Below, piece after piece: positions 19,294-58,400 of a stretch of 64,000 nt of DNA; within the stretch, counting starts at the first letter, position 1; the number at the start of each line of letters is the position of its first letter. The notes under the pieces were generated by a model, which was not told the DNA's origin, did not search any database, and saw only the letters and a list, made by a program, of their open reading frames with translations. A program made the translations under genes and the position numbers. Origin of the DNA: Shigella phage SP21535; the sequence record PQ615101; one strand, given 5' to 3'.

Positions 19294-19375
19294 ATACAAG
19301 TAATATAAATCTATACTTAGGAAAAATAGATGATTCTGGACCTCTGGAATTCATTAAAAATTTTTTCACAAAACT

Positions 19376-19405
19376 GTTTACATCCCCGTTCTTCCATGGT
19401 ACTAT
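19376..19405 (+). promoter_or_regulatory. T4 early-type promoter (GTTTAC, 18-nt spacer, TGGTACTAT) with conserved leader
   Basis: -35 at 19376-19381, -10 TACTAT at 19400-19405; leader shared with four other loci. Confidence 0.55.
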
Positions 19406-19439
19406 ACAACTATCAACTGATACGGATTTGGAGAATAAA

Positions 19440-19820
19440 ATGAAAATCGCTATTTTGGTTATTGCATTGGGTCTTACTGGTTGTGTAGCTCAAGGACCGG
19501 TAGTAAATCAATCTGATGTAGGAAAAATTGTAAACTGTTCAAGCAAATTTTATAATCCTAATGTTAAGTGTTATAAAGAAGCTCCAAAACAGACAGTAGA
19601 ACAAATGCAGGCGAATTTTGACGAAGCTATTCGTCCAGATGAATCTGCCCAAGCATATCGTAATTCAGATGTAATTACACGCGAAGAAAAAATTGAAAGC
19701 TACTGCGCTGAACTTTGGGCAAATTGGGCTAATAATTACCAATGGCGTACTGGTAAAAATGCTCCGATGGAGTATGTAGTGAATTCTTATAATTCATGTG
19801 TAAAAAATTTGACTAAGTGA
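19440..19820 (+). CDS. Predicted lipoprotein (126 aa; signal peptide with lipobox LTGC)
   Basis: In-frame ATG at 19440 within ORF-track entry 19251..19820, preceded by GGAG; MKIAILVIALGLTGC. Confidence 0.6.
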   Translation: MKIAILVIALGLTGCVAQGPVVNQSDVGKIVNCSSKFYNPNVKCYKEAPKQTVEQMQANFDEAIRPDESAQAYRNSDVITREEKIESYCAELWANWANNYQWRTGKNAPMEYVVNSYNSCVKNLTK

Positions 19821-21889: not shown

Positions 21890-22819
21890 ATGTCTATTGC
21901 AGATTTAAAATCCCGTTTGATTAAAGCTTCCACTTCTAAAATGACTGCTGAACTGACTACATCTAAATTCTTTAATGAAAAGGATGTAATCCGTACAAAA
22001 ATCCCAATGCTTAATATCGCTATTTCTGGCGCGATTGATGGCGGCATGCAGTCTGGTTTAACTATTTTCGCAGGGCCTTCTAAACACTTTAAATCAAATA
22101 TGTCTTTGACTATGGTTGCGGCATATTTAAACAAATATCATGACGCAGTTTGTCTATTCTATGATAGCGAATTTGGTATTACTCCAGCTTATTTGCGATC
22201 CATGGGAGTTGACCCGGAACGAGTAATTCATACGCCAATTCAGTCAGTTGAACAGCTGAAAATTGATATGGTGAACCAGCTTGAAGCTATTGAGCGTGGT
22301 GAAAAGGTTATTGTATTCATCGACTCAATCGGTAATATGGCTTCTAAGAAAGAAACGGAAGATGCCTTGAATGAAAAATCTGTGGCAGATATGACTCGTG
22401 CTAAATCACTGAAGTCATTATTCCGTATTGTTACTCCTTATTTTAGCATTAAAAATATTCCATGTGTTGCGGTTAACCATACAATTGAAACAATTGAACT
22501 GTTTAGTAAAACCGTGATGACAGGTGGTTGTGTTATTGCTGGTACTAAAATCCAGATGTCCGATGGTTCTACTAAAGCAGTTGAAGATATTCGTCCAGGT
22601 GAGCGTGTTAAAACCATGGTCGGTGATAATGAAGTAACTTATGTTTGGGACCCCGAAACTCTGGCTGAAGGTACTCCTGAATGTTTCGAAATTGAATTCG
22701 AAGACGGTTATAAAGTAACTACTTCAGATACTCACAAGTTCCTGGTAATGGTTAAAGACATTCCAACTTGGGTTGAAGCTAAAGATTTAGTAGCTGGAAT
22801 GGATTGTGTTGTAAGGTAA
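21890..22819 (+). CDS. uvsX: UvsX recombinase N-terminal fragment (213 aa) fused in frame to an N-terminal split-intein half (96 aa); ends in tandem TAA TAA
   Basis: ORF track; residues 1-213 match the T4 UvsX N-terminus through ...SKTVMTGG, then Cys plus intein blocks A and B. Confidence 0.85.
   Translation: MSIADLKSRLIKASTSKMTAELTTSKFFNEKDVIRTKIPMLNIAISGAIDGGMQSGLTIFAGPSKHFKSNMSLTMVAAYLNKYHDAVCLFYDSEFGITPAYLRSMGVDPERVIHTPIQSVEQLKIDMVNQLEAIERGEKVIVFIDSIGNMASKKETEDALNEKSVADMTRAKSLKSLFRIVTPYFSIKNIPCVAVNHTIETIELFSKTVMTGGCVIAGTKIQMSDGSTKAVEDIRPGERVKTMVGDNEVTYVWDPETLAEGTPECFEIEFEDGYKVTTSDTHKFLVMVKDIPTWVEAKDLVAGMDCVVR
22529..22816 (+). mobile_element. Split intein, N-terminal half (Hint blocks A and B)
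   Basis: CVIAGTKIQMSDGSTKAVEDIRPGERV (block A) and TTSDTHKFLV...TWVEAKDLVAGMDCV (block B). Confidence 0.8.
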
Positions 22820-22824
22820 TAAAT

Positions 22825-22862
22825 ATGGGTACCGGACTAATGTATATTTTTGAGGTACCCAT
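22825..22862 (+). promoter_or_regulatory. Hairpin (9-bp stem ATGGGTACC/GGTACCCAT, 20-nt loop) occluding the endonuclease RBS and abutting its ATG
   Basis: Perfect inverted repeat at 22825-22833 and 22854-22862; SD-like GAGGT at 22852-22856 lies in the 3' arm. Confidence 0.6.
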
Positions 22863-23585
22863 ATGAATTTTGTCTATAAAATTGTGTTCAACGATAGAAT
22901 TAAAAACGGCACTCCGCCATATTACTACATAGGGAGCAAGACAAATGCTTCTTATGTAGATGGTAAGATTATTGACGCCCACGGTCGTGAGTACTATGGC
23001 TCATCGAGATATCCCGGATATCATGATTTTATCAATAATGTTACTGTTGAAATATTGGAGCAATATGATGATATTAAACACACTAAACTGCTAGAGCGCG
23101 AAAATTTCTATCAGAAACAAGTAAATGTTAAAACAAATCCAGATTATTTTAATTTAGATTATGCTTGTGGGCATAATTCATATGCTAATGCTGATTTTGC
23201 ATCATACAAGCATTATATAACAGGTAAATGTATTCGTCTTGAAAGAAACCATCCGCTTGTTAAATCTGGTGTGTATGTTGGCGTCACAAAAGGCGTGAAA
23301 TCTTCTGATGAACACCGCAAGCACATATCAGAAGGTATTACCGGAGAAAACAATGGGTTCTATGGTAAGAAACACACTAAAGAAACAATTAATAAAATAT
23401 CAGAAAAAGCAAAGAAAAGATTAAAGCATTCCCATCCTAGACAAAAAGGTGTTATCATAAACGGTATTGAATACCGGGGCGTCAGACCTGCTGCAAGAGC
23501 GTTGGGAATTAATCCTAACACAATTATCAACAAAATTAAAGCTAATATAAAAGGATGGGCTTATGCAGTAGATGCACGCGGTTAA
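22863..23585 (+). CDS. Free-standing GIY-YIG homing endonuclease between the two uvsX intein halves
   Basis: ORF track, 240 aa; YKIVFN...YYYIGSKTN (GIY-YIG); basic repeat-rich C-terminal region. Confidence 0.8.
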   Translation: MNFVYKIVFNDRIKNGTPPYYYIGSKTNASYVDGKIIDAHGREYYGSSRYPGYHDFINNVTVEILEQYDDIKHTKLLERENFYQKQVNVKTNPDYFNLDYACGHNSYANADFASYKHYITGKCIRLERNHPLVKSGVYVGVTKGVKSSDEHRKHISEGITGENNGFYGKKHTKETINKISEKAKKRLKHSHPRQKGVIINGIEYRGVRPAARALGINPNTIINKIKANIKGWAYAVDARG

Positions 23586-23693
23586 GGCATTCGAAGATAT
23601 GGTAAAAGAATTTGGAATGAACATGACAATCAAGATTATGCTTTCATGAAATATGTATATTGAAACTAGCTACTACGAAACACAAGGTAAAGT

Positions 23694-23798
23694 ATGAAAA
23701 TTAAATCTGTTAAATCTGTTGGTAAAAAAGAAGTCTATGATTTGTCTGTTGCTGACGTCGAGCATTATGTTTTAGAAAATGGTATCGTTACACACAAC
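23694..23798 (+). mobile_element. Split intein, C-terminal half (blocks F and G, ending HN, with +1 Thr)
   Basis: VYDLSV...HYVLENGIVTHN followed by T. Confidence 0.8.
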
Positions 23799-24341
23799 AC
23801 AGGCGTAATGTATTCGGCTGATACTGTATTCATTATCGGTAAGCGCCAGATTAAAGATGGTTCTGATCTTCAGGGGTATCAATTTGTTCTAAATGTAGAA
23901 AAATCTCGTACCGTTAAAGAAAAAAGTAAATTCTTTATTGATGTTAAATTTGACGGTGGCATCGATCCTTATTCTGGATTGTTAGATATGGCTCTTGAAT
24001 TAGGATTTGTGGTAAAACCTAAAAATGGCTGGTATGCTCGTGAATTTCTTGACGAAGAAACAGGCGAGATGATTCGCGAAGAAAAATCTTGGCGTGCAAA
24101 AGATACCAACTGCACTACATTCTGGGGTCCTTTATTTAAGCATCAGCCATTCCGAGATGCTATTAAACGTGCTTATCAGTTAGGTGCTATTGATAGTAAT
24201 GAAATTGTTGAAGCTGAAGTTGATGAATTAATTAACTCAAAGGTTGAAAAATTTAAATCTCCAGAAAGTAAAAGTAAATCAGCAGCTGATTTAGAAACTG
24301 ACCTAGATCAGTTAAGTGATATGGAAGAATTTAATGAATAA
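23694..24341 (+). CDS. uvsX: C-terminal split-intein half (35 aa) fused to the UvsX C-terminal fragment (180 aa)
   Basis: ORF track; MKIKSVKSVGKKEVYDLSVADVEHYVLENGIVTHN then TGVMYSADTVFIIGKRQ..., which matches the T4 UvsX C-terminus. Confidence 0.85.
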   Translation: MKIKSVKSVGKKEVYDLSVADVEHYVLENGIVTHNTGVMYSADTVFIIGKRQIKDGSDLQGYQFVLNVEKSRTVKEKSKFFIDVKFDGGIDPYSGLLDMALELGFVVKPKNGWYAREFLDEETGEMIREEKSWRAKDTNCTTFWGPLFKHQPFRDAIKRAYQLGAIDSNEIVEAEVDELINSKVEKFKSPESKSKSAADLETDLDQLSDMEEFNE

Positions 24342-24687: not shown

Positions 24688-26115
24688 GTGGTAGAAATTA
24701 TTCTTTCTCATCTCATATTTGATCAAGCTTATTTTTCAAAAGTTTGGCCATATATGGATTCAGAATATTTTGAAAGTGGTCCAGCTAAAAATACATTCAA
24801 ATTAATTAAATCTCATGTCAATGAGTATCATAGCGTTCCATCTATTAATGCGTTAAATGTTGCATTAGAAAATAGTTCATTTACTGAAACAGAATATTCT
24901 GGTGTAAAAACACTTATTTCAAAACTGGCTGATTCTCCGGAAGACCACAGCTGGTTAGTAAAAGAAACAGAAAAATATGTTCAGCAAAGGGCGATGTTTA
25001 ATGCTACGTCTAAAATAATCGAAATTCAAACTAATGCTGAGCTTTCTCCGGAAAAACGAAATAAGAAAATGCCGGATGTTGGTGCTATTCCTGACATCAT
25101 GCGCCAAGCATTATCAATTTCATTTGATAGCTACGTTGGTCATGATTGGATGGATGACTACGAAGCACGTTGGCTATCTTATATGAATAAAGCTCGTAAG
25201 GTTCCATTTAAACTCAAAATTCTAAATAAAATTACTAAAGGCGGAGCTGAGACTGGAACACTGAACGTTTTAATGGCTGGTGTTAACGTTGGTAAGTCAT
25301 TAGGTCTATGTTCATTGGCAGCAGATTATTTGCAGCTCGGACATAATGTTCTTTACATTTCCATGGAAATGGCTGAAGAAGTTTGTGCTAAACGTATTGA
25401 CGCTAATATGCTTGATGTTTCTCTTGATGACATTGATGATGGGCATATTTCTTACGCTGAATATAAAGGAAAAATGGAAAAATGGCGTGAGAAATCTACT
25501 CTTGGTCGTTTAATCGTTAAACAGTATCCTACTGGTGGAGCAGATGCTAACACATTCAGGTCTCTCTTGAATGAATTGAAGCTCAAGAAGAATTTTGTTC
25601 CAACAATCATTATTGTCGACTATCTAGGTATTTGTAAATCTTGCCGCATTAGAATTTATTCAGAAAATAGTTACACAACTGTTAAAGCTATTGCAGAAGA
25701 ATTGCGTGCTCTGGCTGTTGAAACCGAAACTGTTCTTTGGACTGCAGCACAGGTTGGTAAACAAGCTTGGGATTCTTCTGATGTTAACATGAGTGATATT
25801 GCAGAATCCGCCGGTCTTCCAGCAACAGCCGATTTTATGCTTGCGGTCATTGAAACTGAGGAGTTAGCAGCTGCTGAACAACAACTCATTAAGCAAATCA
25901 AATCACGATATGGTGATAAGAATAAATGGAATAAGTTTTTGATGGGTGTTCAAAAAGGAAATCAAAAATGGGTAGAAATTGAGCAAGATTCTACTCCAAC
26001 TGAAGTGAACGAAGTAACAGGTTCACAACAGATACAAGCTGAGCAGAATCGCTATCAAAGAAATGAATCTACTCGAGCCCAGTTAGATGCTTTAGCAAAT
26101 GAATTAAAATTTTAG
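24688..26115 (+). CDS. 41: Replicative DNA helicase gp41 (DnaB-like)
   Basis: ORF track, 475 aa (the T4 length); GTG start; Walker A GVNVGKS. Confidence 0.9.
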   Translation: MVEIILSHLIFDQAYFSKVWPYMDSEYFESGPAKNTFKLIKSHVNEYHSVPSINALNVALENSSFTETEYSGVKTLISKLADSPEDHSWLVKETEKYVQQRAMFNATSKIIEIQTNAELSPEKRNKKMPDVGAIPDIMRQALSISFDSYVGHDWMDDYEARWLSYMNKARKVPFKLKILNKITKGGAETGTLNVLMAGVNVGKSLGLCSLAADYLQLGHNVLYISMEMAEEVCAKRIDANMLDVSLDDIDDGHISYAEYKGKMEKWREKSTLGRLIVKQYPTGGADANTFRSLLNELKLKKNFVPTIIIVDYLGICKSCRIRIYSENSYTTVKAIAEELRALAVETETVLWTAAQVGKQAWDSSDVNMSDIAESAGLPATADFMLAVIETEELAAAEQQLIKQIKSRYGDKNKWNKFLMGVQKGNQKWVEIEQDSTPTEVNEVTGSQQIQAEQNRYQRNESTRAQLDALANELKF

Positions 26116-26144
26116 TTTACAAGCTGACAAGACTATGGTATAGT
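26115..26144 (+). promoter_or_regulatory. T4 early-type promoter (GTTTAC, 18-nt spacer, TGGTATAGT)
   Basis: -35 at 26115-26120; -10 TATAGT at 26139-26144. Confidence 0.5.
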
Positions 26145-26172
26145 AGTCTTGTTGGTTAAATGAGGAGATGTT

Positions 26173-28733: not shown

Positions 28734-28768
28734 ATGTCCTCCTTTAAATTAATATTTATCATAAATTT

Positions 28769-28798
28769 GTTTACTTTCTCAGCTTGTTATGGTATTAT
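28769..28798 (+). promoter_or_regulatory. T4 early-type promoter (GTTTAC, 18-nt spacer, TGGTATTAT)
   Basis: -35 at 28769-28774; -10 TATTAT at 28793-28798; 25 nt upstream of the 186-aa ORF. Confidence 0.55.
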
Positions 28799-28823
28799 AA
28801 AATAAATTGCTGAGGATGATATA

Positions 28824-30162
<1,339 letters not shown>

Positions 30163-39594: not shown

Positions 39595-39624
39595 GTTTAC
39601 AAACTCTTGGGACCAGAGTATAAT
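39595..39624 (+). promoter_or_regulatory. T4 early-type promoter (GTTTAC, 18-nt spacer, TATAAT)
   Basis: -35 at 39595-39600; -10 at 39619-39624. Confidence 0.5.
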
Positions 39625-39668
39625 GGTCCTGTGGAGTATAAAATCTTTTTAACAAGTGAGAGATAACT

Positions 39669-40166
39669 ATGATTATTAATATTGGTGAAATTGCTCGTGT
39701 ATCTGATAAATCCCGTTCTAAAGCAGCAGGAAAATTGGTCGAAATTGTAAGCATTCAGCTTAAACATGGTGTTAAAGATGAAGATTCTGAAGTAAAAGTG
39801 CGTATCATTCCTAAAGATGGAAAGTCTAAACCTCAGTTTGGCTATGTTCGTGCGAAATTTCTTGAATCTGCGTTTTTGAAAGCTGTTCCCGCTAAAGGAA
39901 TTGAAACGATTGATACTTCGCATGTAGGTGTAGACTTTAAGTGGAAACTCGGTCAAGCTATTAAGTTCATTGCTCCTTATGAATTCGAATTTACCGAAGA
40001 TGAGGAAGGGATTGTTCAAAAACATCGTACTCGTGCTATGTGTGCATACATTACCGATCAATGGGTAGAAGATGGCGTTAAGTTGTACAACGCGGTATTT
40101 TTAGGAACATACAAAGTCATTCCTGAAAGCTGGATTAAACACTATAGCAAAGCTCGCTGTGCATAA
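39669..40166 (+). CDS. Hypothetical protein (165 aa); paralog of the upstream ORF C-terminal domain
   Basis: ORF track. Confidence 0.5.
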   Translation: MIINIGEIARVSDKSRSKAAGKLVEIVSIQLKHGVKDEDSEVKVRIIPKDGKSKPQFGYVRAKFLESAFLKAVPAKGIETIDTSHVGVDFKWKLGQAIKFIAPYEFEFTEDEEGIVQKHRTRAMCAYITDQWVEDGVKLYNAVFLGTYKVIPESWIKHYSKARCA

Positions 40167-40214
40167 AGTTTAAAATTTTTTCATAAAACTATATACATCA
40201 GTAGTTGATTATGG

Positions 40215-40299
40215 TACTATATCAATATCAACTACTGATACAGAAAACAACTTGGAGAATAAAATGGATAATTCGTTAAAGGTGCTGATACTCTTCTGA
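40215..40299 (+). promoter_or_regulatory. Early promoter -10 plus conserved leader cassette with an 11-codon mini-ORF (40264-40299)
   Basis: TGGTACTAT...CAACTACTGATACAG...TTGGAGAATAAAATG, nearly identical to the 19397-19442 leader; mini-ORF MDNSLKVLILF. Confidence 0.4.
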
Positions 40300-41490: not shown

Positions 41491-43308
41491 ATGATTAAGA
41501 ATGAAATTAAAATTCTGAGCGATATTGAACATATCAAAAAGCGTAGCGGCATGTACATTGGCTCTTCAGCTAATGAAATGCATGAGCGCTTTCTGTTTGG
41601 TAAATGGGAAAGTGTTCAGTATGTACCTGGTCTTGTTAAGCTTATTGATGAAATTATCGATAACTCAGTAGATGAAGGTATTCGTACTAAGTTTAAATTC
41701 GCAAATAAAATTAATGTTACTATTAAAAACAATCAAGTAACAGTTGAAGATAACGGTCGCGGTATTCCACAGGCGATGGTTAAAACACCTACCGGTGAAG
41801 AAATTCCTGGTCCTGTTGCTGCATGGACTATTCCAAAAGCAGGTGGTAACTTCGGTGATGATAAAGAACGCGTCACTGGCGGTATGAATGGTGTTGGTTC
41901 TAGTTTGACAAACATTTTTTCTGTGATGTTTGTCGGTGAAACTGGTGATGGTCAAAATAATATTGTAGTTCGTTGTTCAAATGGCATGGAAAATAAATCA
42001 TGGGAAGATATTCCTGGAAAATGGAAAGGAACCCGTGTTACTTTCATTCCTGATTTTATGTCATTTGAAACTAATGAGTTGTCCCAAGTTTATCTTGACA
42101 TTACACTAGATCGTCTCCAGACACTTGCTGTTGTTTATCCTGATATTCAATTTACCTTTAATGGTAAAAAGGTTCAGGGCAATTTTAAGAAATATGCACG
42201 ACAGTATGATGAACATGCTATCGTTCAAGAACAAGAAAATTGTTCTATTGCGGTTGGTCGTTCACCGGATGGATTTCGTCAATTAACATACGTCAATAAC
42301 ATTCATACTAAGAATGGTGGTCATCACATTGACTGTGTTATGGATGATATTTGTGAAGACCTTATTCCGCAAATCAAACGTAAATTCAAAATTGATGTAA
42401 CTAAAGCACGTGTTAAAGAATGTTTGACTATCGTTATGTTTGTTCGTGATATGAAAAACATGCGGTTTGATTCTCAGACTAAAGAGCGTTTAACTTCTCC
42501 TTTTGGTGAAATTCGTAGTCATATTCAGCTTGATGCTAAAAAGATTTCACGCGCTATTCTAAATAATGAAGCAATTCTAATGCCGATTATCGAAGCTGCT
42601 TTGGCTCGTAAATTGGCGGCAGAAAAAGCAGCAGAAACTAAAGCAGCTAAAAAGGCTTCTAAAGCTAAGGTTCATAAACATATCAAAGCGAATCTTTGTG
42701 GTAAAGATGCTGACACTACTCTTTTCTTGACTGAGGGCGATTCTGCTATCGGATATCTTATTGATGTTCGTGATAAAGAACTTCATGGTGGTTATCCATT
42801 GCGTGGTAAAGTTCTCAACAGTTGGGGTATGTCATATGCCGATATGCTTAAAAACAAAGAACTGTTTGATATTTGCGCAATCACTGGATTAGTTCTTGGC
42901 GAAAAGGCAGAGAATACGAACTATCGTAATATTGCAATTATGACTGACGCAGATCACGACGGTCTTGGAAGTATCTATCCGGCTTTGCTTGCTTTCTTTA
43001 GTAATTGGCCTGAATTGTTTGAACAAGGACGTATTCGCTTTGTCAAAACTCCTGTAATCATCGCTCAGGTCGGTAAAAAACAAGAATGGTTTTATACAGT
43101 CGCTGAATATGAGAGTGCCAAAGATACACTGCCTAAGCATAGTATTCGATACATCAAGGGATTGGGCTCACTTCAGCGGGATGAATATAAAGAAATGATT
43201 CAAAACCCTGTGTACGACGTAGTTAAACTTCCTGAGAACTGGAAAGAGCTTTTTGAAATGCTCATGGGAGATAATGCTGACCTTCGCAAAGAATGGATGA
43301 GCCAATAG
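41491..43308 (+). CDS. 39: DNA topoisomerase II large subunit gp39, uninterrupted (605 aa)
   Basis: ORF track 41488..43308; ATG at 41491; GHKL ATPase N-terminus; covers what T4 splits into genes 39 and 60. Confidence 0.9.
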   Translation: MIKNEIKILSDIEHIKKRSGMYIGSSANEMHERFLFGKWESVQYVPGLVKLIDEIIDNSVDEGIRTKFKFANKINVTIKNNQVTVEDNGRGIPQAMVKTPTGEEIPGPVAAWTIPKAGGNFGDDKERVTGGMNGVGSSLTNIFSVMFVGETGDGQNNIVVRCSNGMENKSWEDIPGKWKGTRVTFIPDFMSFETNELSQVYLDITLDRLQTLAVVYPDIQFTFNGKKVQGNFKKYARQYDEHAIVQEQENCSIAVGRSPDGFRQLTYVNNIHTKNGGHHIDCVMDDICEDLIPQIKRKFKIDVTKARVKECLTIVMFVRDMKNMRFDSQTKERLTSPFGEIRSHIQLDAKKISRAILNNEAILMPIIEAALARKLAAEKAAETKAAKKASKAKVHKHIKANLCGKDADTTLFLTEGDSAIGYLIDVRDKELHGGYPLRGKVLNSWGMSYADMLKNKELFDICAITGLVLGEKAENTNYRNIAIMTDADHDGLGSIYPALLAFFSNWPELFEQGRIRFVKTPVIIAQVGKKQEWFYTVAEYESAKDTLPKHSIRYIKGLGSLQRDEYKEMIQNPVYDVVKLPENWKELFEMLMGDNADLRKEWMSQ

Positions 43309-47017: not shown

Positions 47018-47575
47018 ATGCAGAAAACGAATCCGGGTTTACAGAGACTATTTCAGATTCCGACATTTACCCTATCGAACAGTGACTTGACTAGTGAAAT
47101 GAAGGTCAAAATTGCTGATACAGCAAGATACTCTTTAAAACAAAATCCTAATCAGGATAAAGCAGAAGTCATCGAAAGATGCCGTATCGCTGTGTATGCA
47201 GAGTTTTTTGTAGCAGATTGGCTGAGCGGGTATGTTAACAAAGGCCAAGAGGATGTTAATGATCCGTATACATACGCATGGGATGTATTGGCGCATCCAA
47301 GATATTGCGGGCTTCGTGTAGAAGTTAAGACACATCAAACTGACTCACGTTGGATTTCGGTAACAACCGGATGCAGCGGAGAGTATCCATATGGTTCTGG
47401 AATAAATCTAGGGCCCATTCTAAATCATCAAGTCGCTGACTGTATAATTATATTCAACACTAAAGAAATTCATCCAGGTGTCATCCAGTACACTTCGAAG
47501 TTCATCGGTGACAGAGAAGACCTTCGTAAGGTTGTAAGAAAAAGCAACTACAACGGATGGTATCTTTCCATTTAA
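47018..47575 (+). CDS. denB: Endonuclease IV-like protein DenB
   Basis: ORF track, 185 aa; position next to rIIB; size as T4 DenB. Confidence 0.65.
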   Translation: MQKTNPGLQRLFQIPTFTLSNSDLTSEMKVKIADTARYSLKQNPNQDKAEVIERCRIAVYAEFFVADWLSGYVNKGQEDVNDPYTYAWDVLAHPRYCGLRVEVKTHQTDSRWISVTTGCSGEYPYGSGINLGPILNHQVADCIIIFNTKEIHPGVIQYTSKFIGDREDLRKVVRKSNYNGWYLSI

Positions 47576-47591
47576 AAAAAATCACAAAACA

Positions 47592-47621
47592 GTTTACATA
47601 CCACAAGGACTGTGGTACTAT
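47592..47621 (+). promoter_or_regulatory. T4 early-type promoter (GTTTAC, 18-nt spacer, TGGTACTAT) with conserved leader
   Basis: -35 at 47592-47597; -10 at 47616-47621. Confidence 0.55.
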
Positions 47622-47648
47622 ACAACTATCAGCTACGGAGGAGTAAAA

Positions 47649-47912
47649 ATGAAATTTAAATTTTATTACGCTAAACATAAAATTACCGGTGAATTTATTG
47701 CATTTACGACTTCAACTACAGGTGAAGGAGATATTTTTACTGCAGTATTTTTATCAAAATGGGAATCAGATCAACCTTACTTATCATCACGTGAAGATCT
47801 CCAACGATTAGTTAATGGAGAATATAATGATTCATGGTCATATTTAGTCCATGATTGTGTTAAAAAGGCAATAAAACAAAAACACCTGGAAATCGTTGAG
47901 ATTGAACTATGA
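47649..47912 (+). CDS. Hypothetical protein (87 aa)
   Basis: ORF track. Confidence 0.5.
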   Translation: MKFKFYYAKHKITGEFIAFTTSTTGEGDIFTAVFLSKWESDQPYLSSREDLQRLVNGEYNDSWSYLVHDCVKKAIKQKHLEIVEIEL

Positions 47913-48097
47913 GTTCACTGTGGTGGTGTTTTGTTTGGTTAATTAGTATTCCAGTAATTTGTTTAACATTTACTTTTGTGATGAGGTTATTATGAAAATT
48001 TTGAATTCTGTACTTATTGCTTGTGCGTGGTGGGTTGTGCAAGTTTCAGCGGTAGTAGTTGGTATTCACATTTATTACGAATATTTTTAAAAAAGTT

Positions 48098-48127
48098 GTT
48101 TACAAGACTGTTCTTCCGTGGTACTAT
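48098..48127 (+). promoter_or_regulatory. T4 early-type promoter (GTTTAC, 18-nt spacer, TGGTACTAT) with conserved leader
   Basis: -35 at 48098-48103; -10 at 48122-48127. Confidence 0.55.
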
Positions 48128-48155
48128 TACCCTATCAACTACGGAGGAACAGAAA

Positions 48156-48269
48156 ATGAAAAAGATTGTTAAAGCTATATGGAATGTAGTTATAATACTA
48201 ATAGTTTTGAGTATATTCCCAATCGTTTTAATGATTGATGTATTAAACGTTTACTTTGGATTTATGTGA
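48156..48269 (+). CDS. Small hydrophobic protein (37 aa)
   Basis: ATG at 48156 after GGAGGAA; MKKIVKAIWNVVIILIVLSIFPIVLMIDVLNVYFGFM. Confidence 0.35.
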   Translation: MKKIVKAIWNVVIILIVLSIFPIVLMIDVLNVYFGFM

Positions 48270-51164: not shown

Positions 51165-51201
51165 GGAGAGCCTCGGCTCTCCAAAGCATACTGTGGTACT
51201 A
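51165..51201 (+). promoter_or_regulatory. Stem-loop (GGAGAGC-CUCG-GCUCUCC) followed by an early promoter -10 (TGGTACTAT) and conserved leader, upstream of motA
   Basis: Hairpin at 51165-51182; TACTAT at 51196-51201; no GTTTAC -35. Confidence 0.5.
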
Positions 51202-51243
51202 TACAACTATCAACTACTGATACAGAATTACGGAGATTAGAAA

Positions 51244-51879
51244 ATGTCTAAAGTAACTTACATCATCAAAGCTTCTAACGATGTTCTGAATGAAAAAACT
51301 GCTGCGATTTTAATTACCATTGCTAAGAAAGATTTCATTACAGCTGCAGAAGTTCGTGAGGTGCATCCAGATTTAGGTAACGCAGTAGTTAATAGTAATA
51401 TTGGGGTATTGATTAAAAAAGGCCTGGTGGAGAAATCTGGTGATGGATTAATCATTACTGGTGAAGCTCAGGATATTATTTCAAATGCAGCAACTTTATA
51501 TGCGCAGGAAAATGCTCCTGAACTACTGAAAAAACGAGCAACTCGTAAAGCTCGCGAGATTACTTCTGATATGGAAGAAGATAAAGATTTCATGTTAAAA
51601 CTTTTAGATGAAAATGGATTTGTTCTTAAAAAAGTTGAAACTTATCGTAGTAACTATCTCGCTATTTTAGAAAAACGCACTCACGGAATTCGCAATTTTG
51701 AAATTAACAACAATGGAAATATGCGAATTTTTGGATACAAAATGATGGAACATCATATTCAGAAATTTACTGATATTGGAATGTCATGTAAAATCGCTAA
51801 AAACGGTAATGTGTATCTTGACATTAAACGCTCAGCAGAAAACATTGAAGCAGTAATCACCGTAGCATCTGAACTGTGA
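51244..51879 (+). CDS. motA: Middle-transcription activator MotA
   Basis: ORF track, 211 aa (the T4 length); recognised N-terminus MSKVTYIIKASNDVLNEK. Confidence 0.9.
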   Translation: MSKVTYIIKASNDVLNEKTAAILITIAKKDFITAAEVREVHPDLGNAVVNSNIGVLIKKGLVEKSGDGLIITGEAQDIISNAATLYAQENAPELLKKRATRKAREITSDMEEDKDFMLKLLDENGFVLKKVETYRSNYLAILEKRTHGIRNFEINNNGNMRIFGYKMMEHHIQKFTDIGMSCKIAKNGNVYLDIKRSAENIEAVITVASEL

Positions 51880-55484: not shown

Positions 55485-58400
55485 TTACATAAGTTTAGAT
55501 TCAAGTTCTTTTACACGAGAAGAAAGTGTTTTCACAGCTTCAACCAGAAGAGCAATCTGGGCTTGAGAAGAAACAGTGAGTATTTTATTACCCTTGCTAT
55601 CTTCTGTTTCACGGACGGCTTCTGGTAAAACGTCTTGCAACGTTTGAGCCACAATACCTGCTTCAGTTTCAATTGCCTCTCCACCGATGTATTCAGCTTT
55701 ATCGTAAATGACACCGTTAAGTTTTTCAACTTTATCAAGTGCATTTTCGATAGGTTTAAAGTTGGATTTTAAACGAATATCAGAACGAATATAAACGTTT
55801 GGAGCATTTATATTTTTATATGAGTACAAATCACCGTTTTGGAAACGGAATACTTGTACACTGTTCGCATATATGTCTAATAATCCATCGCCATTTTGCT
55901 TAATACCAGTATCGCTATCGCCAAATGCTATACTATTTCCACCAAGTGCGTTATTGATATTAATACCAAATGAATTCATTTGGTTAACACCAGCTACAGT
56001 AGCATTATTTACTACAAAACGGTTAGCTCCACCTGGAGCTTTTTCAAAGTAAGCAATATAGTTAGTTTCATCGGCAATTTCAATACGGTTACCACGAGAA
56101 GCATCGCCAGCATGAAATATTCTCATATTTCTTGGGTTAGCACCAGACTTATCAAAGTTAATAGAACCATTATCTTTGACATTTATGCTATTATAGAATA
56201 AAGCAGCACTGCGAACAGCTATGCCGTTATTCATTAATACTTCGCCTGTTGTTAAGTTAATTGCGAAAGGACGCTTACTATTCCAATCACCGTTAACAGT
56301 TGCTTCGCCATCGGTGGCATTTTTATCTGTAAACAGAATATAAAAACTACTGCCATCATTTCGTAGCATTGTAGCAACAGAACCAGTTTTATCGCTGTTG
56401 CTTCTAATACGAATACCAGTTTGGTTATTAATAGCTATTTCAGAATCGGCTTCATAACGCTTAACTTTGCCGCGATCAACCAAGTTATTAAGAACATTAG
56501 CAACTTGCCCATCAACTGCTGTATCTGGAAGAGCATCCACAGGTGATTGGGTAGATGAGTTAATACCAATAACGCTAACAGTAGCATTTTCGGTACATGA
56601 CCATTCACAAGTTAATTGATTGCAATATGTTCCGGCATAAACATAAATGTCATATGTATCTCCAGAGACGTTATTAACTGCAATATTTTTAAATGCAGCT
56701 GCAATTGTTCTTGTGTATAATACAGCATTTAAGTCAGCAGGTCTTTCATTACTAGTACGTAAAACAATTTCAGCAATATTGCATTGTGTGAATAATCCAC
56801 TATTAAATCCAGAACCACCGGCTATTTTAAAGAAGACCGTAGAAGTGGATTGTGGCATTGTTACTGTTGCAAACTTATACCATCCAGCAGTTGCTCCATA
56901 AGTAATAAATCCAGAATTAACTTTACGATTTAGCGTGGTGTTTAAGTTAGCAAAGTTTCCTGAACCGCTAGTAATATTACCGTCAGTTCCTAGTTGGGCA
57001 TTTCCGACTTTAAAGGGTTTAGTGATTGACACGAAATTATCACTTATAACAAGACCATGTCCATAAGATTGGCTATAAAGTGATAAATCATTTCCAGCAC
57101 CACCAAGACCAACATACCACGATCTAGTTCCAGCTTTAGAACCCTGCAAATAATTAGCAGAAGAAGATGAAGGAGAATCTAGAGTAAGCGCTGCATTACG
57201 TTCATTAATAGTTACTGGACATATCATTTTAATAGTTTTAAGACTATTACTTACTTGTAATAATCCTGTACCAGATCCAGAATCTCCTAAATGAACATCA
57301 TGCGACATTTTAACTGTGCCGGTGTTCAGTTCTATTATCAATGGTCTAAGATTACTTATACCGCCAGATTCTCCAGCATCTTTAAGAGTCGGGATAATAT
57401 AAAGATTACTTTCTGAGCGACGGAAAATAGCACCATATTCGGCATTCCAAATTCTTAATGCATCAGCAGTTCCGCCGATTTTAACTTGTCCAGTAATAGA
57501 AGAACCACCTTGGACAAACAAACCATTAGACATGGTAACATTACCGACTAAAGTGCTTAATCCATTAACTTTAAAACTTCCGTCAGTAATAATACTTCCT
57601 CTAGCATTAACAGCTCCAGCAAACTGGGTTACAACAGGACCAGTAGTTTCTGAGCCGCTTGGGGCTACACGCTGGGAATAAAAATAATAACCTTGTCCGT
57701 CAGCTACTTCAAAAACTGTTTCACGATTACGATCGCCAGATGCGTTAAATGAATTACCCCACGCTTTAACGGTTACATAGCTTTTATTTTGACCAGCACG
57801 CTTACCGCCTTCCCACATGATTTGCTTAGTACCATCAATTGTAGTAGTTGGAGCGAATGTCAGCCCAGCAGTAGAATTATTAGCTGCTAAATATATGCCG
57901 TTATATATTGAAAGCTGCTTAACAGATGTAATACCGCCATCAGCATAAAACATTACATTATTTGCACCGGTTACTAGTTTAAGAATACCCGGGTTAACTT
58001 CCATGCCTTCTTGAGTATTAATATTAGTTTTTCCTTTACCACGGAAATAGTGGTTCATTTTACCGCCAGAGTTATATCCAATGTGGGTTTGACCATCTCC
58101 AGCAGAGTTTTCATCAGCCTGTGTTTGAACTGATAAAAATGCAGCATTCGTACCTGGCATAATCCAAGTTGCACCTTGGTCTTCTGAACGTCCAAATAAT
58201 GCTTTACGAGTACTACGGAAACTGTCAGGAGTAATAGACGCGATAGAAAGACCATTAGCAACTAAATCATATACACCAGATCTTTTATATGATATACCAG
58301 TTGCGGCATCTCCAATGACTATATAGCATTCACCCATTGCTCCAGTGGAGCCGTAATTATTAATGTTTTCATCTGTTGTAATTGTACCAATTGCGAGTGA

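Follow-up and report, generated by a model that had tools for sequence, protein, structure and literature searches.

The consensus of the early promoters of bacteriophage T4 (Pe) is reportedly that set out by Liebig and Rueger in 1989 and by Miller and colleagues in 2003. A conserved motif comprising a promoter, ribosome-binding site, and leader, and bounding the internal-protein loci of the T-even phages, is said to have been described by Repoila and co-workers in 1994. When aligned, T4 early promoters display "additional regions of consensus" besides the UP, -35, TGn, and -10 elements (Hinton 2010, PMC2988021), and the promoter logos of Nolan et al. 2006 stop at the start site. The PeSLs of RB49 and phi1, and T-even analogues built on T4 early promoters, have been reported as modules of this kind, with the T-even early-promoter elements being called analogues, not homologues, of PeSLs (Arbiol et al. 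2010, PMC2839356). For the endonuclease RegB, the consensus of a strong site is GG*AGRAYARAA, with GGAGAAUAAAA as the T4 optimum, and the RNA must be single-stranded (two RegB reviews; Durand et al. 2006, PMC1702504); motA is named as a good substrate (RegB reviews).

The window, that is, the whole 64-kb stretch of DNA that was analysed, is, judged by its sequence, a Tequatrovirus segment with about 95% identity to T4. Comparison of the whole window revealed that it is colinear with T4, with the + strand corresponding to the T4 early strand and the matched T4 span running from about 46.5 kb down to 1 and then from 168.9 kb down to 151.8 kb, and that ~14 insertions, deletions, or replacements separate the two. 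Many Tequatrovirus genomes match the 3-kb region around the segment that was followed up, in which gene 52, motA, and arn are located, at 96-97% identity. The phages compared were T4, RB32, IME339, IME537, ZN18, and CrRp10, together with IMG/VR contigs. Five repeats in this DNA are very probably T4-type early promoters of a "TACTAT" subclass, each fused to a short translation-initiation leader.

The five copies of TGGTACTAT(N6)ATCA[A/G]CT[AG] are found on the same (+) strand, starting at 19397, 40212, 47613, 48119, and 51194 (Table 1). The 32-mer TGGTACTATACAACTATCAACTACTGATACAG is exact at 51194-51225 and recurs with three mismatches at 40212-40243, and no match to it was observed in 100 dinucleotide-preserving shuffles; the set of five was established by reading the other three sites and by a relaxed scan of the window. 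The five near-identical segments claimed in the preliminary description are consequently all present, each within 1 nt of where it had been placed. When the -35 hexamer is included in the pattern (GTTTAC-N(12-20)-TGGTACTAT), three matches are found in the window against 0.01 expected, with their -35 elements at 19376, 47592, and 48098. A generic sigma-70 scan of the window gave 58 matches against 65 expected and is uninformative in an A/T-rich genome, and a full-text literature search for the motif strings returned no relevant paper.

Table 1. Predicted parts of the five promoter-leader cassettes and of the motA deletion joint (window coordinates).
Feature	Position	Strand	Sequence or remark
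Copy 1, imm.1 early promoter cassette	19351-19442	+	T4 counterpart 27056 (before imm.1)
Copy 1, UP region	about 19351-19375	+	A/T-rich sequence
Copy 1, -35	19376-19381	+	GTTTAC
Copy 1, TGn	19397-19399	+	
Copy 1, -10	19400-19405	+	TACTAT
Copy 1, predicted +1	19412	+	ATCAACTGATACGG
Copy 1, RegB/SD site	19430-19440	+	GGAGAATAAAA
Copy 1, ATG	19440-19442	+	
Copy 2, motB-cef intergenic cassette	40165-40299	+	T4 counterpart 6606
Copy 2, -35 position	40191-40196	+	ATATAC; T4 likewise
Copy 2, inverted repeat, 13 bp	40197-40209 / 40227-40239	+	ATCAGTAGTTGAT / ATCAACTACTGAT; brackets TGn and -10
Copy 2, TGn	40212-40214	+	
Copy 2, -10	40215-40220	+	
Copy 2, predicted +1	40227	+	
Copy 2, RegB/SD site	40254-40264	+	GGAGAATAAAA
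Copy 2, 11-codon mini-ORF	40264-40299	+	
Copy 2, cef start	40339	+	
Copy 3, cassette downstream of denB	47565-47651	+	T4 counterpart 167062
Copy 3, -35	47592-47597	+	GTTTAC
Copy 3, TGn	47613-47615	+	
Copy 3, -10	47616-47621	+	
Copy 3, predicted +1	47628	+	ATCAGCTACGGAGGAG
Copy 3, ATG	47649-47651	+	start of 87-aa ORF
Copy 4, ndd.5 early promoter cassette	48072-48158	+	T4 counterpart 166783
Copy 4, -35	48098-48103	+	GTTTAC
Copy 4, TGn	48119-48121	+	
Copy 4, -10	48122-48127	+	discriminator TACCCT
Copy 4, predicted +1	48134	+	ATCAACTACGGAGGAAC
Copy 4, ATG	48156-48158	+	
Hairpin after motA.1, 7-bp stem	51165-51182	+	GGAGAGC-CTCG-GCTCTCC; stem of T4 motA.1 terminator
42-nt deletion joint versus T4	51182/51183	+	exact position ambiguous within repeated CC
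Copy 5, truncated motA promoter-leader	51194-51246	+	T4 counterpart 163649
Copy 5, TGn	51194-51196	+	
Copy 5, -10	51197-51202	+	
Copy 5, discriminator	51203-51208	+	ACAACT
Copy 5, predicted +1	51209	+	ATCAACTACTGATACAG
Copy 5, RegB/SD site	51232-51242	+	GGAGATTAGAA; 10/11 match to consensus
Copy 5, motA ATG	51244-51246	+	

The identification of these segments as early promoters is upheld by their position-for-position counterparts in T4 and by the A/T-rich UP region, GTTTAC, TGn, and TACTAT elements. An extended -10 (TGn followed by TAnnnT) is found in all five copies, a GTTTAC hexamer about 17-18 nt before the -10 in three (copy 2 having ATATAC and copy 5 a deletion), and an A/T-rich UP region (-40 to -60) in four, the exception again being the deletion in copy 5. 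The promoter strength of copies 2 and 5, which are without the GTTTAC hexamer, is uncertain. The A of ATCAAC is the predicted start of transcription, a placement modeled on the T4 record, where the note "Pe133295" belongs to a -10 hexamer starting at 133307, placing +1 at 12 nt past the first base of the hexamer.

A scan of T4 for GTTTAC-N18-TAnnnT with an A/T-rich upstream region returned 35 sites. Fourteen of these have a TACTAT -10, with the extended consensus ..AAAAATTTTTTCACAAAAC.GTTTACA...TGGTACTATAcAACTATCAAcTac, and this subclass is conserved through the discriminator to about +9, whereas the remaining 21 (TATAAT, TATAGT, TATTAT) show no conservation downstream of the -10. Within the window, the five copies are 100% identical over TGn and the -10 (TGGTACTAT) and 87% identical over +1 to +9 (ATCAACTAC), compared with 73 and 29%, respectively, for the 12 other GTTTAC early promoters. 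Conservation beyond the needs of a -10 element, as originally proposed, is therefore a genuine trait, but one of a discrete T4 TACTAT subclass that is wider than the five copies. The proposed extent of about 25 nt into the leader holds for subsets only: copies 2 and 5 agree to +17, and copy 1 does likewise with a 3-nt gap, whereas all five together agree to about +9 only. A useful detail to emerge is the clean division of T4-type early promoters into two classes, of which only the TACTAT class has a conserved start region.

About a third of T4-type early promoters (the 14 TACTAT sites of T4) carry an almost unchanging ACAACT/ATCAACTAC block from -6 to +9, which in some copies reaches +13 as ATCAACTACTGAT; the rest (the other 21) lack it. 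In RB69, a phage of a different genus in which the imm/imm.1 pair has a genome position different from that in T4, TACTAT-N6-ATCAACTAC is kept before imm.1, and several other promoters, of several types, begin with ATCA. The retention of ATCAACTAC suggests some direct selection on the start region, as descent and recombination alone would be insufficient to account for it. One reading, compatible with the main explanation and given a rather low probability, is that the block is a control element at the level of DNA, which might tune open-complex lifetime or promoter escape, or bind an early-promoter shut-off factor, making the TACTAT promoters a separately regulated class. Its near invariance, its partial retention in RB69, and the partial palindrome ATCA..TGAT speak for such a role, as does the description of the shut-off mechanism as incompletely understood (RegB review), but the spacing of the palindrome halves varies (ATCAACTGAT versus ATCAACTACTGAT), no motif associated with DksA sensitivity emerged when discriminator regions were compared in a published study, and no factor is known. 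It is likewise rather unlikely, from the sequences compared, that the block acts as a functional DNA or initial-transcript element by which TACTAT promoters acquire kinetics of their own or become the target of the early-promoter shut-off. If it did, the recurrent natural deletions of the motA UP and -35 elements would represent adaptive retuning of the middle-gene activator.

Toward its 3' end, the leader carries a putative processing signal. The segment TTGGAGAATAAAATG is common to copies 1 and 2, as had been claimed, and contains the exact published strong RegB/S1 site GGAGAATAAAA, which is the T4 optimum and doubles as the Shine-Dalgarno sequence. These two copies hold the only exact matches to GGAGRAYARAA in the 64-kb window (19430 and 40254). 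With one mismatch allowed, 15 matches are found against 11.3 expected, which is not above chance, so that only the exact matches are informative. The RegB-type site of the motA copy matches at 10 of 11 positions and has the sequence of the known T4 motA substrate, whereas copies 3 and 4 carry GGAGGAG and GGAGGAAC, in which only the GGAG(G) part fits and the 3' A-rich part is poorer. The regB gene itself is outside the window, T4 regB being located at about 62.3-62.7 kb, beyond the T4 stretch covered.

The view of the cassettes as 5' UTR regulatory elements thus stands for this tail and falls for positions +1 to +17, where neither RNA structure nor an Rfam match was found. Folding of the five leaders from the predicted +1 gave stabilities that did not exceed those of shuffled sequences (z from -0.6 to +1.15), and no family reached threshold in an Rfam scan of the whole window. 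A riboswitch or attenuator was rejected, as the leader folds no better than chance. More generally, a structured cis-regulatory RNA, whether riboswitch, attenuator, or sRNA target, is hardly credible as the reason for leader conservation: the conservation does run past +1, and the leader can be drawn with a weak 4-bp AUCA/UGAU hairpin, but apart from the folding and Rfam results the leader tolerates a 3-nt deletion and wholesale swaps of type with the downstream ORF unchanged, and RegB requires single-stranded RNA according to published work. From its match to published sites, the Shine-Dalgarno/RegB site is the segment of the leader whose regulatory role is known, and no sign of a structured RNA element was seen.

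Copy 2, between motB and cef, has an unusual arrangement in which the spacer ATCAGTAGTTGAT is exactly complementary, in inverted orientation, to the leader start ATCAACTACTGAT, giving a hairpin of -20.2 kcal/mol (z = -4.6); the whole arrangement, including the inverted repeat and ATATAC, is identical in T4. Other early promoters with a spacer complementary to the sequence just past the -10 are found in the window at 26115-26160 and 39595-39640, and inverted repeats of the same type occur in T4 at 57966, 20588, 133307, 65775, and 73915; in one example, GACAAGACTA..TATAGT..TAGTCTTGT, the stem-loop spans the -10, as in one PeSL subclass. The preliminary description had one cassette driving only an 11-codon mini-ORF. 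This ORF is real, but cef begins 40 nt beyond it, and the claim cannot be maintained. The mini-ORF encodes MDNSLKVLILF in the window and MENSLKVLILF in T4, with two synonymous changes and one conservative Glu/Asp change between them. Homology between the cef cassette and that of T4 e.8 starts at about -55 and continues through ATGGATAATT, into the first codons, where the similarity ends, and for this reason the ORF looks like the stump of an e.8-type gene start. It could be a translated leader peptide instead of a mere relic.

The stem-loop that had been noted ahead of one copy is also real and is a terminator hairpin that remains after the loss, by deletion, of the -35 and UP elements of the motA promoter. 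In T4, the order is the motA.1 stop, the hairpin GGGAGAGCCGAGGCTCTCCC, a T-tract, AAAAATTTTTTCACAAAACG, GTTTAC, the spacer, and TGGTACTAT. The 42-nt deletion in the window takes out the terminator T-tract, the UP element, and the -35 GTTTAC, and the hairpin stem now abuts the spacer. Five other phage genomes (GEP001, ZN18, vB_Eco-B1.1, Sfk20, and CrRp10) share this joint, about 500 others have the full-length motA promoter, and IME537 has an independent 38-nt deletion of the same elements. Five states of the locus were observed across phages, in T4, in the window with CrRp10, in IME537, and in ZN18. In ZN18, a truncated cassette with a 42-nt UP/-35 deletion identical to that of the window precedes an extra ORF and is followed by a second, complete cassette before motA, both sharing the leader ATCAAATAAATGAACTGAAAC. 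The extra ORF of this Yersinia phage (record L011 760-1230, minus strand) lies between motA.1 and motA and encodes 75 aa of unknown function. From these alignments, the motA locus of the window resembles a recombination product, ZN18-like in its left half and T4-like in its leader. As the terminator is without its U-tract, motA is inferred here to depend on read-through from upstream transcripts and/or on a weaker extended -10 promoter; TGn/-10 promoters are independent of -35 contact (Hinton 2010, PMC2988021). A second useful detail is the range of natural states of the motA promoter (full, two different UP/-35 deletions, and duplicated around an extra ORF), which provide material for testing how much motA early transcription matters.

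Downstream of denB, four configurations were found in an alignment of four phages. The denB cassette is followed by ORF-X and then ORF-Y in IME339, by ORF-X only in RB32, by ORF-Y only, with a different leader, in the window, and by neither ORF in T4, where the final eight codons of ORF-Y directly follow the leader ATG. All of the joints are in the leader or at the AAAATGAAA start region (SD-ATG). The IMG/VR contigs add a fifth arrangement, in which the common leader is joined directly to ORF-Y, and also contain the ndd.5 promoter with either discriminator type. The T4 mini-ORF after denB (MKIAEIEL) had been considered a transplanted imm.1 start, a candidate discarded when the four-phage alignment revealed the leader ATG followed by the last eight ORF-Y codons. 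The 87-aa ORF at 47649-47912 (MKFKFYYAKHK...) has no Pfam match, is absent from T4 and RB18, and is replaced by a different ORF in RB32, T2, and RB6; it is found in most of ~500 Tequatrovirus records, as two types of about 97% and about 86% identity.

Placed side by side, the cassettes are mosaics: small numbers of spacer types and of UP/terminator types are combined in varied ways with about six types of leader. The imm.1 cassette of the window differs from that of T4 by a clustered spacer change matching the T4 e.8 cassette and by a 3-nt leader deletion matching the leader type of the T4 nrdC.10 cassette. It is improbable, given such patterns, that the similarity is purely convergent, with each copy separately selected as a strong promoter and translation start and no exchange between them. 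The UP region, -35, TGn, -10, Shine-Dalgarno, and RegB motifs are functional and would be conserved anyway, and ATCA at +1 recurs in several RB69 promoter types; however, subsets of copies share identical spacers without known base-specific polymerase contacts (for example, aagcataaagctttatgg, aagactgttcttcc, and atcc..gttcttccatgg), the homology extends into upstream terminator T-tracts and first codons, the changes that distinguish the cassettes of one locus in different phages are clustered and match cassettes of other loci, and indel joints are found inside cassettes.

The suggestion that the cassettes are recombination hotspots resembling promoter-stem-loop modules is borne out by this mosaicism and by the cross-phage comparison of flanking genes that the preliminary description had called for, as breakpoints of indels and replacements coincide with the cassettes, with joints inside them, at the denB-downstream and motA loci. 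About 3 of the ~14 rearrangement joints between the window and T4 fall inside early-promoter cassettes, with the remainder mostly at stop/SD/ATG junctions of other genes, so that "hotspot" is a relative term. As far as these alignments indicate, the cassettes are frequent joints and not the sole ones.

Several other loci of the window also differ from T4. A 536-nt insertion occupies window positions 28760-29297, and its site corresponds to T4 17709/17711, in the interval separating dam from gene 61. It opens exactly at an early promoter (GTTTAC at 28769 and TGGTATTAT at 28790), a small ORF follows, and the whole looks like a promoter-plus-ORF module. The uvsX region (21890-24341) looks as though it is split by a split intein with a free-standing endonuclease gene between the halves. 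Here, the UvsX N-part ends at ...TGG/CVIAGTKIQ... with weak matches to Hint modules, a 240-aa ORF with a NUMOD3 motif follows at 22863-23585, and a third ORF comprises an intein C-terminal block ending ...VTHN/TGV and then the UvsX C-part (the slash marks the boundary in each case). T4 uvsX is contiguous at this split point, and at least 80% coverage of 21890-24341 was found in only 8 of 508 matching phage records, with RefSeq/GenBank duplicates counted. The gene for the large topoisomerase subunit is continuous at 42908-42972, a point at which gene 39 ends in T4 and is followed by mobA, 60.1, and the beginning of gene 60; as the window maps T4 3911 straight to 2794, the gene-60 bypass region appears to be absent.

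Collectively, these data are consistent with the following model for the T4-type early promoters described here. On infection, unmodified host sigma-70 RNA polymerase would bind the UP region, the -35 GTTTAC, TGn, and the TACTAT -10, and initiate at the predicted A of ATCAAC. The resulting leader, of 20-40 nt and presumably unstructured, would end in a GGAG Shine-Dalgarno sequence, the GGAGAATAAAA form of which would be an optimal RegB/S1 endonuclease target, allowing early mRNAs to be inactivated a few minutes later. Likeness beyond the polymerase contacts, in the spacer, the discriminator ACAACT, the +1 segment ATCAACTAC, and the TGATAC.. leader, would reflect common descent of the dispersed copies. 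Homologous and microhomology recombination between copies probably keeps remixing the cassettes, and genes of T4 relatives are thereby often inserted, deleted, or replaced with joints in them, with the motA copy as a natural variant produced by the 42-nt deletion.

In these terms, the cassettes represent biology that is already known, namely T4 early promoters, RegB sites, and PeSL-like modular shuffling. They share with the T4 Pe consensus the UP region, GTTTAC at -36 to -31, TGn, a TAnnnT -10, placement on the early strand before early genes, and matching T4 sites, but two of the five are without GTTTAC (ATATAC before cef and the deletion at motA), and the copies form a tighter TACTAT subclass with conservation to about +9. 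As in the motif attributed to Repoila and co-workers, an early promoter and translation start are reused as a T-even recombination linker, although at imm.1, cef, denB/ndd, and motA rather than at the internal-protein loci. The resemblance to PeSLs lies in dispersed near-identical early-promoter modules before small accessory ORFs, in some stem-loops upstream of or across the -10, and in joints for insertion, deletion, and replacement, including the ZN18 ORF flanked by two cassettes. A PeSL, however, combines a sigma-70 consensus promoter with an adjacent stable stem-loop (usually GGGG...CCCC), whereas the promoter here is of T4 type (GTTTAC) and stem-loops are found in only two of the five copies, neither of the poly-G/poly-C type: that of copy 2 is A/T-rich and lies across the -10, a layout matching the PeSL subclass "stem-loop overlapping the -10," and that of copy 5 is the upstream terminator stem. 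Because the promoter type and the regular G/C stem-loop of PeSLs are lacking, while the cassettes do behave as linkers through which ORFs are gained, lost, and replaced by recombination, the fitting classification is that of T4 early promoters behaving like PeSLs, rather than of PeSLs.
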